A DNA stretch of 23,432 nt, taken from Candidatus Nanohalobium sp. (GTDB taxonomy: Archaea > Nanohalarchaeota > Nanosalinia > Nanosalinales > Nanosalinaceae). The stretch is from NCBI GenBank assembly GCA_042216335.1, contig JBDGTY010000013.1:1-23432 (forward strand), in the 5' to 3' direction. Positions 9,340-17,954 of this stretch are shown in pieces (the stretch's first letter is position 1; each line of letters begins with the position of its first letter). A model generated the notes under the pieces. The model was not told where the DNA came from and did no database searches. It was given only the letters and a program-made list of their open reading frames with translations. A program made the position numbers and the translations under genes.

Positions 9340-9777
9340 TCAGTAAACCTTCTCCTTATCCAGGTATTCATGAAGGAACTTCATCGGAGGATATCCGTAG
9401 CCAGCGTCTTGGTGCCAGTTCATTCTCTTGTACTCGTCGGCGGTGACCCAGGCGAAGTTTTGATGTTCTTTCGATATTTCTACCTTGCCTTCCCAGTTGC
9501 TACAGTGTATGATAAATGTGTCTACATCGTTTTCTTCCTCTATCTCTTCCCTGACTATATCACTAATTTCTCCGAGTTGAATGCCAATTTCTTCTTTAGC
9601 TTCCCTTCTCGCTGCTTCAAACCTGTCTTCTCCTTCTGCTAAAGTTCCTCCCGGCAGCTCCCACTTACCGGCCATTCTCCCGTACAAAGTATATTTGTGG
9701 CCACTGTGTACTTTATCTTCTGAGGTTTTCTGCATTGTCAGAAAGTCTCCATCCTCATTCTCTATCAATAGTTTCAC
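9340..9777 (-). CDS. NUDIX hydrolase (probable C-terminal domain of a frameshifted fusion)
   Basis: WELPGGTLAEGEDRFEAARREAKEEIG Nudix box. Confidence 0.9.
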   Translation of the reverse strand: MKLLIENEDGDFLTMQKTSEDKVHSGHKYTLYGRMAGKWELPGGTLAEGEDRFEAARREAKEEIGIQLGEISDIVREEIEEENDVDTFIIHCSNWEGKVEISKEHQNFAWVTADEYKRMNWHQDAGYGYPPMKFLHEYLDKEKVY

Positions 9778-10223
9778 AACTTTGATTCGCTCTCCCGAAC
9801 CATATCCTTTTCTGACTCAAGATAATCGCTTAGATATTCTATGACAGGAAGAATATAGGCTGCGTTTCTATGCCAGTTCAGTTCCAAAGCCTCCTTGCTA
9901 TCTATCCATCTGTATTCTTGATGCTCTTCCTCCAGCTCTATCTCTCCGGAGAAGGAATTATTGAACATCACGAAGCAGTTGACGGTTTCATCATCCTCTA
10001 TCTCCAGCCTAACAAGATCCCTGAAATCTTCTGAATTCAGGCCAGTCTCTTCCTTAATCTCTCTTTCCGCGGCTTCAAACCTGTCCTCATCATCCTGAAT
10101 CTTTCCGCCCGGCTGCTCCCACTTGTCCGCCATCCAGCCGTAACCCGAAGATTTTTTCAGCATCAAAAACTCGCCACTATCATTCTGGATTAGGACTTTG
10201 ACGACATCAATTTTCTCTGTCAT
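9774..10223 (-). CDS. NUDIX hydrolase (probable N-terminal domain of a frameshifted fusion)
   Basis: WEQPGGKIQDDEDRFEAAEREIKEETG Nudix box. Confidence 0.9.
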   Translation of the reverse strand: MTEKIDVVKVLIQNDSGEFLMLKKSSGYGWMADKWEQPGGKIQDDEDRFEAAEREIKEETGLNSEDFRDLVRLEIEDDETVNCFVMFNNSFSGEIELEEEHQEYRWIDSKEALELNWHRNAAYILPVIEYLSDYLESEKDMVRESESKL

Positions 10224-10642
10224 AGTAAATCGAACGCTTCCAGCGCTTTAATCTCTTCTCCAAGCTTTTCACGGGCATTCTCCAGGTTAGTTCCAAGGTT
10301 CTCTGTGTCGATCCAGGTGTATTCGGAGTGATCGGTCAAAAGTTCTTCATCGATCACTTTCTCCATATCTCTGTACATGTGTTCGGCGTATACAGGGATT
10401 ATGTCGTATTCACCACCTTTCCAAATATAGTCTGGTTTGGACTTGACAGCAGTTACCTCTATGCTGAACTCCTCATCCATCTCTCTTTCCGCAGTATACA
10501 GTGAATCCTCATCCACGTGTTCTTTACCGCCAGGAAACTCCCAGTCGCCGTTATCATTCCTCCGGGCAACCAGAAAATACCTTTCTTCACCAGTTCTGGG
10601 GATGACTGTGGCAGCTACTCTTCCTGTATACCTCTCCGACAT
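10220..10642 (-). CDS. NUDIX hydrolase
   Basis: WEFPGGKEHVDEDSLYTAEREMDEEF; ATG 10642 lies about 22 nt downstream of TTAAAA. Confidence 0.88.
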   Translation of the reverse strand: MSERYTGRVAATVIPRTGEERYFLVARRNDNGDWEFPGGKEHVDEDSLYTAEREMDEEFSIEVTAVKSKPDYIWKGGEYDIIPVYAEHMYRDMEKVIDEELLTDHSEYTWIDTENLGTNLENAREKLGEEIKALEAFDLL

Positions 10643-10675
10643 AGATATAGAAAGATTCACAAATTTTAAGCAAAT

Positions 10676-13673: not shown

Positions 13674-14675
13674 CTAGTTAAGCTTCCGGCTCCTCTTCCT
13701 CAGTTCATCCATGTCCAGATCCTCAAGCTCGGCAGAATAGTACCTGTCCCTCAGTTCTTTCAGCTCCTCTCTTCCGTACGGGAATGTCAGCCTCTTCCAC
13801 AGACCTTTCCATTCCATGTAGTTAGGTAGCTGGTCGGCGTACGTTCTGCCGGCGCGGAAAAGGTCCTGGAACGTGTCTAACTTTGTGGGCTCGATCACTT
13901 TCATATCTTTGATTTCACCTAGTGGTATCTCTCCGCTCTCAAGTTTCTCTATCGCAGAATCTTCCAGCAGTCCGATTCCTCCGAGGCCGCTGGGCAGGTG
14001 GACGTGATGGTCGTGCTCCACTATCATCTGCGCATCGTATTTTTCTGCAAGTCTTTGTACGTTGATTTCGCTGTCTGTTTCTCCACGCGCGTTCCTGTCG
14101 ATGTTGACAGGGTATGCGTACGTGTAAGGTATGAAGAGTTCTGCGGAGGATTCTTTAATCGTTTCACATACTTCTTCCAGTTCCTCCATATCCATGCCGA
14201 ATTCCCCGAGGAAGGGGTGCGCAGGATGAGCAAAAGCTGCGTCTTCAAGAACTTCTGAAAGCTCTTCCCCTTCTATGTTGTAGTACTCTTTTTCTTCGCG
14301 CAGTGGGAGGCCTACCAGAACCAGATGGCTGTCCCTCCTCCTGTAGGATGCCTCCACTCCGTTGATTATCGCTACCTTGGAATCTTCGTGCTCCATTACC
14401 AGGCTTCGCTCGTTCAGTTCGTAGCTGCCGCCCAGTTCTTCGGCTTCCTCACCAAGTTCCCTGAAGAAACCTTCTCTGTTTGTCCTGTAGTGTTCTGTCA
14501 GTACTATGACTGCCTTCTGGCCTTCCCCCAGTTTTTCCAGTATCTTCACCGGGTCGCCAAGATGGTTGATTCCTTTCCACTCCGGCTCCTCCGTCAGTTC
14601 GTTAACGTAATCTGTTGACTTCTCGGTGTGGAAGTGGTGGAGGAATAGGGTGTTCCTGGTTTCTGTGGCGTCCAT
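13674..14675 (-). CDS. Divergent PHP-family metal-dependent phosphoesterase
   Basis: HHFHT, LTEHY, NGVEA, SHL, AHPAHPF, HDHH occur in PHP motif order. Confidence 0.7.
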   Translation of the reverse strand: MDATETRNTLFLHHFHTEKSTDYVNELTEEPEWKGINHLGDPVKILEKLGEGQKAVIVLTEHYRTNREGFFRELGEEAEELGGSYELNERSLVMEHEDSKVAIINGVEASYRRRDSHLVLVGLPLREEKEYYNIEGEELSEVLEDAAFAHPAHPFLGEFGMDMEELEEVCETIKESSAELFIPYTYAYPVNIDRNARGETDSEINVQRLAEKYDAQMIVEHDHHVHLPSGLGGIGLLEDSAIEKLESGEIPLGEIKDMKVIEPTKLDTFQDLFRAGRTYADQLPNYMEWKGLWKRLTFPYGREELKELRDRYYSAELEDLDMDELRKRSRKLN

Positions 14676-14713
14676 GTGTGGTTTTCGGAAGCTAGTTAGA
14701 AATAAGTTTTTGG

Positions 14714-15100
14714 TCAGAGGCTGGTGTCAATCGCGCTTACAATCTTATTTTCTATGTCTCTGACCTCGTTCCTTGTCAGCCCCCATACGCGTGTCATGTC
14801 CTCTGTCTCTGCGTCCCAGATCCCGGCGTATCCATGGTTCTCAAGTGCCTCGTTCAAACTGCCTGTGTACTGGGAGGTCTTGCCGAGGTAGTGCTGGATC
14901 TCCTGGTTAGTTATCTTGCTGACAGGGATGTTGTTGAATGAGGAGCCTTCTCGCTCCGGCTTCTCGGTGATTATCTCATCCACTGCTCCGTAAACCTGTG
15001 AGAAACCGCCGAGAATAGAGGAGTTGCCGTCGGGCCTGTAAACCCACGAGGCTTTCTTCTCCCTGATAAATTCGGAAAGCTCCTCCCTAGGCCCTTTCAT
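14714..15100 (-). CDS. Hypothetical protein
   Basis: ORF directly after the nusA stop; ATG 15100 preferred over TTG 15112. Confidence 0.65.
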   Translation of the reverse strand: MKGPREELSEFIREKKASWVYRPDGNSSILGGFSQVYGAVDEIITEKPEREGSSFNNIPVSKITNQEIQHYLGKTSQYTGSLNEALENHGYAGIWDAETEDMTRVWGLTRNEVRDIENKIVSAIDTSL

Positions 15101-15104
15101 GGCT

Positions 15105-15608
15105 TTATTCAAAGCTGATCTGGTAGTAGGTTCCTGTGATCTTCTCGATGATGTCCTCTAGTTCGTCCGTGGACATGTTGATCTTGCCCTCGAACTCCTC
15201 ATCGACCACTACCTTCTTGTGCTCGCCTTCAGGAGCGAACACCGTGTTAACTGACTCGATCTCCGCCGGGCTCAGCAGTCCTTTGATGACTTCTCGGTCG
15301 CTCTCGCTCTTCTCAACGACACGGATACTTTTCTCGATTTCTTCCGCGACTTTCTTTACTATTTCTCCGCTTCTGCCGACTACCTTGGCTCCGTCGCCTT
15401 CGGCAGTTACCACGACGACAACGTTTTCCGTGTCGTAGATGTGGAGGATCTCCGAGTCCCGGAGGCTTCCGTATTCGTCGCTGAGTTCTTTCAGCTTTCT
15501 TGAGATTTTGATCTCGAGTTCGTTGATCTCGCCGTTCTCCAGCTTCTCCTCGCAGTTGCTGCAGAGAACGTCGCTCTTCAGACATACATTACAGATTGGC
15601 GCCTTCAT
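15105..15608 (-). CDS. nusA: Archaeal NusA paralogue (Zn finger plus KH domains, NusA2-like)
   Basis: MKAPICNVCLKSDVLCSNCEEKL, KH motif VVGRSGEIVK, LLSPA...VNTVFAPEG. Confidence 0.85.
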   Translation of the reverse strand: MKAPICNVCLKSDVLCSNCEEKLENGEINELEIKISRKLKELSDEYGSLRDSEILHIYDTENVVVVVTAEGDGAKVVGRSGEIVKKVAEEIEKSIRVVEKSESDREVIKGLLSPAEIESVNTVFAPEGEHKKVVVDEEFEGKINMSTDELEDIIEKITGTYYQISFE

Positions 15609-15647
15609 ATACAAGTCCGCGTCGTGAAAAATTAAATAGGTGGAGAC

Positions 15648-16142
15648 TCACCGCAGGGAAAGGAAAAGCTGGCGCCCCGACTCAACAACGGCGGCGCCGC
15701 CGACAACTAGAAGGCCGTAGAACACTATGTACTCGTTGAAGGATCCTGCGACCAGTGTTGCAGCAAGTATAGCGACTCTCTCCTGCCTGCCGATTATCTC
15801 GACATTGGAAGACCTGAGTCTGTCCTTCAGCATCAGGTGGAACGAGTTCTGGAAGCCGACGGCCACGGCTGCGAAGAAAACCGGTAGAGCAGCCGGTGAG
15901 AAAAAGTAGGCTGAGAACAATCCCAGGAACTCGATAAGATTAGCAGAGAGAGAATGCAGCACCTTCGATGTATCAGTTCGTCCCTTCATCCTCGCCACTT
16001 TCACGCCCTGCCTGTAGAGCAGGAATGAAGCTGCCACGGATGTTCCGGTTATCGCCGGGTTCCCGACGATGATGCTTGCTCCCGTTCCGAGCACCATTGC
16101 TGCTATCGATGCAAGCGTCCACATGTAGTAATTGTTTGCCAC
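15648..16142 (-). CDS. Membrane protein, degenerate CDP-alcohol phosphatidyltransferase-like
   Basis: 5-6 hydrophobic helices; G-x3-AR and C-terminal GRQERVAIL retained, catalytic Asp residues absent; GTG 16142 lies about 25 nt from TGTTAA. Confidence 0.6.
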   Translation of the reverse strand: MANNYYMWTLASIAAMVLGTGASIIVGNPAITGTSVAASFLLYRQGVKVARMKGRTDTSKVLHSLSANLIEFLGLFSAYFFSPAALPVFFAAVAVGFQNSFHLMLKDRLRSSNVEIIGRQERVAILAATLVAGSFNEYIVFYGLLVVGGAAVVESGRQLFLSLR

Positions 16143-16183
16143 TGTGAGAATGTTATCGATGTCAAGTGTTAACAGTTTTTCGA

Positions 16184-16634
16184 TGCGGAAATCCCGGGGA
16201 TTTTCCCGCAAACCGAAGATAATTCTTGTCCTGGATTTTTAGAAGATAAAGCCCGGTCGGGTGAACGCTTCCGGTGCAGGAAAAGGGGGGGAGGGGAGTG
16301 TTTTTCGAGATTTTTTCTCGAAAAGGTTCCTGCAGTCCTTCCACGTTCACCCATCTGGGCTGTTGAAAATATTGTGTTTGGGAGGAGCCCGAGCCTGAAA
16401 CAAAAAGGGGGGGGAGGGGAGTGTTTTTGCTTTGGGCTCATGACTCCTCCTAACATAGCGACGAAAATCGAAGATTTTCTGGAGTCGAAGACTTCTCTGT
16501 CTTCTGTGCCGAGAAACCTGTCAGGGTTTCGGCCCAGAAACCTTCGGTTTTCGTACTTTAGGCCTCTAAGAGGCCCTTGCTGAAATCCTGGTGGACTCCA
16601 GCTTGGCGAAAATCCTCTCGGATTTTCTGGATTC
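16184..16634. ncRNA. Large structured non-coding element with two G-string repeats (ncRNA, ftsZ 3'UTR or oriC candidate)
   Basis: About 10 inverted-repeat stems plus the direct repeat A4-5G7-8AGGGGAGTGT5 at 16281-16305 and 16402-16428; the ORFs here lack host composition. Confidence 0.55.
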
Positions 16635-16655
16635 ACAAAATTCAAAGAGTTTTGA

Positions 16656-17726
16656 TCATCCGTTCATTACTTCCAGTCCGAGGTCGTTGACGTCGCCTGT
16701 GACTTCTGTCTCTGATTCTTCGTCGATGTCTCCGAGGACGTATGGGCTTTCCACTCCTGTGATGATGGAGATTACCTGAATCTTACCCTGAAGTTCTTCC
16801 TTGACTCTTGCGCCCCAGATCGTCTGTGCCTGGTTGTTGAGTTTGGATTTGACGTGCTGCCCGACCTCGTTGATTTCGTTAAGTGTAAGGTCGTTGCCTC
16901 CTGCGACGTGGAGCAGTGCTCCGTTTGCGCCGTCGAAGTTGACGTCTAGCAGCGGGTTGCTTAGTGCTTCGTGGATTGCTTCCTTTCCTTTGTTGTTTGT
17001 ATCTGACTCTCCGTATCCTACTACTGCTACGCCTCCGTCATTCATGATCGCCTGGACGTCTGCGTAGTCCAGATTGACGAGTGAAGGCTTTGATATCGTC
17101 TCCGTTATGCCTTTGATCATCGTGGTGATGAGTTCGTCGGCTACTCCGAATGCCTGGTCGAGAGGCATGTCTCCTGCGATATCGAGGAGTTTGTCGTTTT
17201 CAATAACGATCGCGGTGTCGACGTGCTGCCTCAGTTTGTAGAGACCATCTTCTGCCTTGCTCATCCTTGCGCCCTCGATCTCGAATGGCATAGTCACTGT
17301 TCCAATCACTATGCAGTCCTCCTTCTTCGCGATCTCTGCAAGTACAGGTGAGACTCCTGTTCCTGTTCCTCCTCCCATCCCTGCGGTGAGGAAGACCATG
17401 TCAGCGTCCTTGAACAGGTTTCTCAGTTCGGCACGGTTTTCTTCGGCGGCACGGGACCCTGTCTCTGGGTCTCCACCTGCTCCAAGGCCCTTAGTCAGGT
17501 CTCTTCCTACCAGTATCTTCCTGTCAGCGGAAGACATCTCCAGGTGCTGCTTGTCTGTGTTGATTGCGACAGTCTCGGCACCTTCAACATCCTTGTTCTG
17601 GATACGAGTTACCTGGTTGTTCCCGGCACCCCCAGCGCCGACTACCAGGATTTTGGCATCTCTTACATCATCTAGGTTTTCCGAGGTTTTGGAGTCGTTT
17701 TCAGCGTTGTCGATTATAGATTCCAT
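16656..17726 (-). CDS. ftsZ: Cell division protein FtsZ (FtsZ2-like)
   Basis: GAGGAGNN, INTDKQHL, GMGGGTGTG, NLDYADV, IWGAR. Confidence 0.98.
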   Translation of the reverse strand: MESIIDNAENDSKTSENLDDVRDAKILVVGAGGAGNNQVTRIQNKDVEGAETVAINTDKQHLEMSSADRKILVGRDLTKGLGAGGDPETGSRAAEENRAELRNLFKDADMVFLTAGMGGGTGTGVSPVLAEIAKKEDCIVIGTVTMPFEIEGARMSKAEDGLYKLRQHVDTAIVIENDKLLDIAGDMPLDQAFGVADELITTMIKGITETISKPSLVNLDYADVQAIMNDGGVAVVGYGESDTNNKGKEAIHEALSNPLLDVNFDGANGALLHVAGGNDLTLNEINEVGQHVKSKLNNQAQTIWGARVKEELQGKIQVISIITGVESPYVLGDIDEESETEVTGDVNDLGLEVMNG

Positions 17727-17796
17727 TGTAGTACCAGCCTTGCGTTTAGCACAACCTTTTTAAGTGCAGAGACCTAACTCTACCTGTAGAAAGACT

Positions 17797-17954
17797 GAGT
17801 CTTGCCCAAGACTCGATACATGCCCAAATACTGATTCGAACTTTGCCCAAAGTTCGAGACTGATACCAAACGTTCAATCGTAATCTGTAAGCCCGTTTCG
17901 AACTCGTGCCCGCGAGTCGAAACATGAATCATGTCATCGTCCGCCCAAGGACGA
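17797..17954. repeat. Array of four hairpins with a shared GCCC (GGGC on - strand) loop
   Basis: Stems at 17797-17814, 17836-17857, 17895-17923 and 17937-17954 differ in sequence but share the loop core. Confidence 0.75.

Follow-up and report, generated by a model that had tools for sequence, protein, structure and literature searches.

A conserved hairpin element downstream of ftsZ1 in nanohaloarchaea, a probable novel regulatory RNA element with a link to cell division

The gap downstream of ftsZ1 on a 23.4-kb contig of Candidatus Nanohalobium sp. (JBDGTY010000013.1; the whole contig was analysed and is called the window below) contains an element of two hairpins, each of which exposes the same short string, G-rich on the plus strand and C-rich on the minus strand. 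The source organism is a nanohaloarchaeon, belonging to the DPANN archaea, and its genome comprises 1.02 Mb at a completeness of 96%. As judged by sequence comparison, the stem structure is under selection and the element holds no conserved open reading frame (ORF). It is probably a hitherto undescribed RNA element with a regulatory role connected to cell division. We tentatively propose that its core (16250-16457) is a structured 3' untranslated region (3'UTR) of the ftsZ1 mRNA, read from the minus strand, with C-rich loops that could dock a G-rich partner.

Structure and conservation of the core behind ftsZ1

An earlier note, made from the sequence of the window alone, had described a nested structure of about 450 nt in this gap. 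The region consists of two different things, a conserved core (16250-16457) and an accessory part (16461-16630). The stems of the larger structure are real, but the conserved unit comprises only the core of about 210 nt. The features of the core and of the preceding gene are the following, in coordinates of the window:

16656..17726, minus strand: ftsZ1 coding sequence, 356 residues, with Pfam domains Tubulin and FtsZ_C and a match to NCBIfam TIGR00065 (ftsZ) at 391 bits
16378..16457, placed on the minus strand: hairpin 2, the first after ftsZ1, with outer stem 16381-16387/16444-16450, inner stems and a 17-nt apical loop
16451-16457: box TAACATA, at the end of the hairpin 2 unit
16407..16423: string copy 2, plus-strand sequence G8-A-G4-AGTG (a C-string on the minus strand), in the apical loop of hairpin 2 and unpaired in the minus-strand fold
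16362..16377: A/T-rich box that links the two hairpins, plus-strand sequence GTTGAAAATATT..., kept in all four genus members
16250..16361, placed on the minus strand: hairpin 1, with nested stems 16250-16267/16344-16361 and 16275-16282/16327-16334, from inverted repeats and predicted fold
16285..16300: string copy 1, plus-strand sequence G7-A-G4-AGTG
16241..16249: box next to hairpin 1, rich in A on the plus strand (AGAAGATAA) and in pyrimidines on the minus strand

The name ftsZ1 was chosen because each genome holds a second FtsZ elsewhere, about 49% identical; in the present genome this paralogue is encoded on another contig, and relatives also possess a second FtsZ per genome.

Every stem that had been proposed was recovered in place by a repeat finder. 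In hairpin 1 these are an outer stem of 18 nt with 83% complementarity (16250-16267/16344-16361) and two stems with 100% complementarity, of 8 nt (16275-16282/16327-16334) and 9 nt (16302-16310/16316-16324); an internal loop carries the string on one of its sides, next to the inner hairpin (16302-16324). In hairpin 2 a stem of 10 nt with 90% complementarity (16378-16387/16444-16453) was found, and the stem 16385-16402/16422-16439 was also recovered. The delineation of hairpin 2 is based on inverted repeats, the predicted fold, the match of a covariance model (16378-16457) and compensatory changes in relatives from the same genus.

The double occurrence of the G-string, to which the earlier note had drawn attention, is beyond chance. 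The 16-nt copies (16285-16300 and 16408-16423) are embedded in two direct copies of 25 nt (16281-16305 and 16404-16428) that are 96% identical; the 16-mer occurs twice in the window against an expectation of 0.02, and none of 100 shuffled sequences contained it twice. Runs of at least seven G or C are found eight times in the whole genome, and two of these are in the element. The string had also been described as unpaired in two different stems. This is cleanly the case on the minus strand, where the predicted fold of the window coincides with the covarying structure, but on the plus strand the G-string is partly paired, with pyrimidines. Folding of both strands, which had been recommended, gave structures more stable than those of shuffled sequences in each case, both for a stretch of 501 nt (z of -8.5 for the minus strand and -5.7 for the plus strand) and for a 223-nt core (z of -7.0 and -5.4, respectively).

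The structure is further backed by conservation and compensatory changes. All three relatives from the same genus carry both G-string hairpins, with arm sequences that are quite different yet still pair, and the arms of hairpin 1 in genomes G001, G002 and G003 have different sequences while their complementarity is kept. Alignment of the four genus members with MAFFT and RNAalifold recovered hairpin 2 and misfolded hairpin 1 through pairing of the G-string, the variable arms being misaligned, and MAFFT did not keep the structural register in alignments of 18 and 8 hairpins. Because plain alignment lost the register of the variable arms, a covariance model was built from four well-aligned hairpin 2 copies and used to search 59 loci. 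It gave 57 matches, some of them partial and five on the opposite strand of the palindromic stems. In the resulting alignment, 91.5% of the cells in paired columns can pair, versus 70.6% in shuffled alignments (none of 500 shuffles reached the observed value), and two-sided changes occur in all 15 pairs (102 cells, versus 23.7 expected). When the partners are slid by one to three columns, pairing falls to 41-64%. The alignment was fitted to the model and thereby favours the model's structure; the arm replacements seen by eye and the slid controls agree with it. A permissive palindrome score of low power placed 49 of 66 units above all of their 30 shuffles, with a median z of 4.

The genome set for the comparative analysis consisted of 70 genomes from five families, all within one phylum, 50 of which belong to the same family as the window (f1). 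Of the 50 family genomes, 26 (including that of the window) contain one or two exact copies of a 12-mer from the string, and all 26 sites are directly behind ftsZ1, the relatives carrying one or two copies there. The reversed control pattern matched in 6 of the 70 genomes. Three exact matches in other families lie in what is apparently coding sequence and seem to be due to chance. An FtsZ1 orthologue with at least 81% identity is encoded in 46 of the 50 family genomes. Among these 46, 20 lack the exact 12-mer; variant strings (G5-10, A or AA, G3-7) are found in hairpins of 19 of the 20, and in the remaining one the contig end cuts inside the string. All 45 complete regions of the family thus (by these searches) contain the element, with at least one G-string hairpin located 75-455 nt downstream of ftsZ1; two strings are present in 22 of the 45 regions, as determined with a regular expression, and the length of the G-run varies from 4 to 10. 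The linker box recurs across the family as GAAATAT, and AATAAG or ATAAAG boxes resembling that at 16241-16249 are found ahead of hairpin 1.

In the other four families, runs of at least five G occur within 380 nt behind ftsZ1 in 12 of 13 genomes (33 runs), against a background of 0.16 such runs per kb per strand, and 18 of the 33 are in predicted loops of at most 25 nt. The loop consensus is looser here, approximately (U)GUGGGGG(G)AA or G5-U-G5, with one to four hairpins, and a UAAUAUAGGUUUU box after the stem is kept in some genomes. These distant forms are likely to be homologous to the element, although this is less secure than within the family. The hairpins are long helices (20-40 bp) that hold out a conserved homopurine/homopyrimidine string, in one to four copies; across the phylum, the loop string is the best-conserved part, and the stems drift freely.

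Collection of the ftsZ-downstream regions of relatives, as had been advised, thus revealed an element that is kept behind this gene, and in most genomes hairpin 2 begins a few nt past the ftsZ1 stop codon. The element keeps its place at the stop codon although the next gene changes: it is a membrane protein gene in the window, a gene for a NusA-like KH protein in G015 and one for aIF5A in G036. Dispersal in the manner of a miniature inverted-repeat transposable element, against which the earlier note had wished to guard, is not observed, the element being confined to a single locus per genome in the 16-mer and covariance-model searches. In the 1.02-Mb genome the 16-mer with at most one mismatch was found nowhere beyond the two sites at this locus, and the only match of the covariance model was 16378-16457.

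An ORF of 158 aa (16169-16645) that spans the element was rejected as coding sequence: its product has no Pfam match, and the frames, stops and peptides differ among 10 relatives. The lengths of the G-runs shift by non-multiples of three, out of step with codons, and stop-free frames in short elements are no more frequent than the C-rich composition allows.

Strand, possible function and alternative readings

The strand, which the earlier note had found ambiguous, was examined by several criteria. In predicted folds without constraint, 41 of the 45 elements leave at least 90% of the string unpaired on the minus strand versus 5 of 45 on the plus strand, with mean unpaired probabilities of 0.96 and 0.46, respectively. 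Runs of at least six T act as termination signals in archaea; inside the element, the plus strand has 15 of these and the minus strand 3. Since in most genomes hairpin 2 lies only a few nt from the stop codon, there is no space for a minus-strand promoter of its own, which fits read-through from ftsZ1. Following hairpin 1, a minus-strand T run of at least four is found within 35 nt in 27 of 45 genomes. Counts of A-runs and T-runs ahead of hairpin 1 are equal (24 vs 24) and confounded by the neighbouring promoter. Mismatches in the stems, named for the plus strand so that A.C stands for G.U on the minus strand, give G.T to A.C ratios of 26:41, 10:20 and 7:8 at three increasingly strict flanks. 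This nearly symmetric spectrum resembles the raw outcome of mutation in long helices with weak selection per pair, and at most leans toward the minus strand. The accessibility of the string, the T-run counts and the fixed place at the stop codon favour the minus strand, that is, the sense strand of ftsZ1.

We propose that transcription would pass the ftsZ1 stop codon and proceed through hairpin 2 and then hairpin 1, the transcript ending in the pyrimidine- and T-rich stretch ahead of the promoter of the next gene. The helices would be free to drift as long as they remain paired, their role being the presentation of the single-stranded C-rich string, which in the family reads roughly ACUCCCCUCCCCCC. 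The loops could serve as docking sites for a G-rich partner, candidates being a G-rich or Shine-Dalgarno (SD)-like RNA or a protein that binds C-rich single strands, and docking may set the stability or the translation of the ftsZ1 mRNA. Alternatively, the hairpins could be released as a 3'UTR-derived small RNA (sRNA). The 16S rRNA of a genome from the same genus ends in ...GGAUCACCUCCA and shares a CCUCC core with the commonest string of the family; as some genes moreover use SD-like sites, pairing with G-rich ribosome-binding regions is possible. The anti-SD-like character assigned to the string in the earlier note applies to its commonest form within the family, but not to the G..AAGGG variant or to the strings of other families.

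Several observations weigh against this proposal. First, a C-run pairs less readily than a G-run in any sequence, so part of the contrast in accessibility is a matter of composition. Secondly, the wobble counts give little or opposite direction: the strictest flanks leave 7:8, internal G.U pairs number 92 in the plus-strand fold versus 89 in the minus-strand fold, a strand-neutral palindrome alignment contains 93 G.T, 79 A.C and 108 other mismatches, and the plus-oriented model alignment contains 35 G.U versus 15 A.C, in an alignment that is biased toward G.U. Thirdly, each hairpin on the plus strand is followed by an AAUAU box and four to six U, resembling the 3' end of an sRNA, and in the window and its genus no minus-strand T run of at least four follows hairpin 1. 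The CCUCC core is not kept outside the family, and the short ftsZ1 leader has no G-rich stretch to which the loops could pair, which makes simple pairing between the 5' and 3' ends of the ftsZ1 mRNA unlikely. Finally, a search for sequencing runs that hold this stretch retrieved none recorded as RNA.

The alternative that survives best, although we regard it as rather unlikely, is an independent sRNA gene on the plus strand, convergent with ftsZ1, that would encode one to four G-loop hairpins, each with its AAUAU box and U-run. Its promoter would be a symmetric TATA box, shared with the neighbouring gene that is transcribed in the opposite direction, and the G-loops (which contain GGAGG in the family) would have as their ligand a protein or a pyrimidine-rich RNA, for instance the 3' end of 16S rRNA, with which GGAGG could indeed pair, or else form G-quadruplexes. 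In 13 genomes a TATA-like TTAAAC is seen by eye 37-43 nt ahead of hairpin 1. Among 861 long ORFs of the whole genome, TATA-like hexamers peak sharply 28-30 nt ahead of the first ATG (indicating many leaderless mRNAs), and because such boxes sit at this distance before starts, the sRNA would begin about 10 nt ahead of hairpin 1. In the window, however, the nearest TATA-like box (16235-16243) puts the start within the covarying outer stem, and in family f4 the TATA box of the neighbour is about 80 nt away (by eye). Runs of four to six T after hairpin 1 and hairpin 2 on the plus strand, present in many genomes, agree with an sRNA, but runs of five to six T between and inside the hairpins would halt the archaeal polymerase ahead of hairpin 2. 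The excess of G.U in the model alignment also speaks for it, but this alignment was fitted to a plus-strand model. Moreover, the conserved motif would be hidden on this strand, being mostly paired, and the linkage to ftsZ1 survives a change of neighbour and thus of promoter.

The formation of G-quadruplexes, which the earlier note had put forward, is not a constant possibility, as many variants lack four usable G-tracts when read by eye. Tracts of this number could be provided by G7-A-G5, G5-T-G5 and G7-A-G4-6-A-G5 only; G7-A-G4 does not have them (by eye), and G-quadruplexes were rejected as a general explanation.

It is improbable that the element consists of generic end-of-gene hairpins that act in transcription stop, as an insulator or in 3'-end protection of a highly expressed ftsZ1, with no sequence-specific partner and with strings kept for a trivial reason such as loop stability. 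Their place directly after the stop codon and the high stability of the long stems would suit such a role, and the same intergenic region gathers other short hairpins of a dispersed family. Yet it is the loop string that is best conserved across the phylum while the stems drift, two of only eight runs of at least seven G or C in the genome are found here, and the dispersed hairpins elsewhere in the genome do not have such loops. In addition, archaeal termination requires U-runs rather than hairpins.

A DNA-level element, in which the palindromes would extrude as cruciforms or single-strand hairpins and the G-strings would be bound by a protein such as Orc1/Cdc6, is distinctly improbable. The mismatch spectrum of the stems is nearly strand-symmetric, as if both strands counted equally, and the origin boxes of the present genome end in G5-T-G5, which is exactly what the hairpin loops of family f4 carry. 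According to PMC3528665, origin boxes terminate in a G-string that is specific to halophiles. In contrast, the core of the origin box is absent from the element: with at most three mismatches, the pattern was found only on contig C18, at four sites, beside orc1/cdc6. The strings in the element are direct copies on the same strand, there is no AT-rich unwinding stretch between inverted boxes, and protein-binding DNA sites keep their sequence, whereas the arms here covary. A replication origin at this position was rejected, as the single orc1/cdc6 of this genome is on contig C18 and in 5 of 5 complete genomes the gene is 300-440 kb away.

Separately, a region of contig C18 of this genome (1843-2321), directly upstream of orc1/cdc6, is a replication origin in which three G-string origin boxes, one of them inverted, surround an AT-rich stretch.

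We give equally little credence to transcription of both strands, in which the ftsZ1 3'UTR and a convergent antisense RNA would form mirror-image hairpins and tune the ftsZ1 mRNA level by pairing. Such an arrangement would explain both the strand-symmetric mismatch spectrum and the end-like signals on each strand, and a cis-antisense regulator of ftsZ, StfZ, has been reported in E. coli (PMC9628754, from a partial text). Weak selection per pair on long helices, however, would give the same symmetry without a second transcript. Highly improbable is the notion that the replication initiator Orc1/Cdc6, or another reader of the G-string, has a second kind of target in these hairpins, on extruded DNA or RNA; if Orc1/Cdc6 did read them, the supply of FtsZ1 would be tied to the replication state, a direct link between replication and division in a minimal symbiotic archaeon.

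Accessory hairpins and neighbouring genes

The features that flank the core are the following:

16461..16630: accessory cluster of short hairpins (16463-16479, 16515-16533, 16538-16553, 16561-16577 and 16608-16627), enclosed by the stem 16479-16486/16594-16601
16185..16209: another short hairpin of the dispersed type, in the interval from hairpin 1 to the next promoter
15648..16142, minus strand: next gene, encoding a membrane protein, with a probable leaderless start at GTG 16142 and a TATA-like GTTAAC (16168-16173) 31 nt ahead

The enclosing stem of the accessory cluster (8 nt, 100% complementary by the repeat finder) and the four hairpins that the earlier note had placed within it are real in the window, but they are outside the conserved element and shared only with G002 of the same genus, the cluster being absent or different in G001 and G003. 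The cluster contains members of a family of short perfect palindromes, GAAAAYC-N3-6-GRTTTTC, of which the genome has 25 copies (16463-16479 and 16608-16627 in the window); related palindromes in the window are 16188-16205, 16515-16533 and 16538-16553. Near-identical 20-25-mers of these palindromes match many family genomes at other loci. As the cluster is built from dispersed palindromes and only G002 shares it, it was treated as accessory. Members of this palindrome family often adjoin start or stop codons; operator sites and end-of-gene hairpins are two possible roles. Elsewhere in the genome, the dispersed hairpins have no G-string loops. A different inverted repeat, with a C-string and a G4-A-G4-A-G4 string as its arms, is present on contig C4 (around 14640-14715) in a context unrelated to the ftsZ1 element.

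The membrane protein encoded by 15648-16142 has no Pfam or NCBIfam match, and the proteins of relatives align to it only from residue 23. This, together with the position of TATA-like hexamers 28-30 nt ahead of starts, makes a start at GTG 16142 the most likely one, and the non-coding gap then extends from about 16143 to 16655. In the same genome-wide scan of ORFs, SD-like 4-mers peak at -15 to -10, and such sites are used ahead of some genes. The order ftsZ1 - gap - membrane gene is kept in three genomes of the genus, within which FtsZ1 is 94-96% identical versus 36-41% for the membrane protein. The latter evolves fast and can be described as a surface or membrane protein outside the known families. 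A gene for a NusA-like KH-domain protein is located one or two genes further downstream of the element.

Upstream of the ftsZ1 TATA box (around 17795-17860, minus strand), between gatC and the ftsZ1 promoter, three copies of TTGGGCA are found, two of them in the loops of small hairpins; this trio may be a regulator-binding array for ftsZ1. Elsewhere in the window (9340-10660, minus strand), three tandem NUDIX hydrolase genes are followed by a PIN-domain gene and a gene for an RlaP-type nucleotidyltransferase.

Known RNA families and related systems

The description of the element in the earlier note as undescribed agrees with the outcome of a search of the whole window against Rfam 15, which gave no match at gathering scores. 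With an E-value limit of 10, six weak matches were obtained over 15600-17200, at 11-23 bits versus cut-offs of 38-200, to unrelated eukaryotic and viral families. The absence of an RNase P, signal recognition particle (SRP) or tRNA signature was likewise corroborated: ARAGORN detected no tRNA or tmRNA, and full-length candidates for the two other RNAs are on other contigs, namely C48:1305-1644 for RNase P RNA (34 bits, E 1.5e-8, gathering score 84) and C38:13072-13347 for SRP RNA (84.7 bits, gathering score 96.5). Both of these RNAs are divergent in this lineage, and only 11 tRNA genes were found by ARAGORN in the 96%-complete assembly.

Literature searches on non-coding RNA of Nanohaloarchaea, on structured RNA or covariation in DPANN archaea and on the ftsZ intergenic region of Nanohaloarchaeota returned nothing on the element and no nanohaloarchaeal regulatory RNA. 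A conserved intergenic RNA of 266 nt in nanohaloarchaea, STRG.4577.1, is mentioned in the accessible part of PMC7002113, and may or may not be the same element; its sequence is not contained in the two supplements of that paper that were examined.

Nanohaloarchaea are DPANN symbionts with genomes of about 1 Mb and very little non-coding DNA, and all those examined keep 100-250 nt of structured sequence at ftsZ1. For organisms that must match their division to a host, this makes the element a strong candidate regulator of the process. It is easily recognised, occurs in single copy and has relatives in cultivated strains, which would make the control of FtsZ1 in a DPANN archaeon directly testable. 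RNA catalogues, in which archaea and especially DPANN archaea are poorly represented, would gain a new family.

Among known regulatory RNAs, the RsaE/RoxS-type sRNAs of Firmicutes have a C-rich string (the 'UCCC motif') that pairs with G-rich ribosome-binding sites; they are bacterial, trans-encoded and about 100 nt long. The minus-strand element similarly exposes a short C-rich string repeatedly, in a genome that uses some SD-like sites. It differs in its location in the 3' region of one archaeal gene, its much longer stems, its C-runs of 4-10 and the lack of an Rfam match. The bacterial CsrB/RsmZ RNAs are protein sponges with repeated GGA-motif hairpins, and are resembled by the variable number of hairpins (one to four) and by the same short GGA-containing purine motif in each loop on the plus strand. 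In contrast to these, the loops here have long G-runs and the favoured strand shows C. As no match to PF02599 (CsrA) was found in the 96%-complete genome, the element is not a CsrB-like sponge in the strict sense.

A possible resemblance to archaeal H/ACA RNAs concerns the plus-strand hairpins, one to several in number, a few nt beyond which an ANA-like triplet occurs (AUA or ACA, in an AAUAU or AACAUA box). Such a box is found 0-5 nt after most hairpins on the plus strand, but it is also a near-palindromic A/T box present on both flanks. An H/ACA RNA was rejected. In the predicted and covarying structures the string is apical or one-sided, with 0-2 free nt on the opposite side, and does not form a two-sided pseudouridylation pocket; no kink-turn was identified, and no Rfam snoRNA model reached its threshold.

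The haloarchaeal origin boxes, as far as they are described in the available part of PMC3528665, also combine a G-run with a repeated element in a halophilic archaeon. The present element is unlike them in being without the box core and away from orc1/cdc6, and in having direct copies within covarying palindromes. StfZ (PMC9628754, likewise from a partial text) is comparable as an RNA-level feature that is physically attached to ftsZ, but it belongs to another domain of life, is located at the 5' side rather than the 3' side, and differs in structure and sequence, so that no homology is implied. Set beside these systems, the nanohaloarchaeal element appears, from its sequence features, to be an RNA motif that is new in itself but of a general kind already known.

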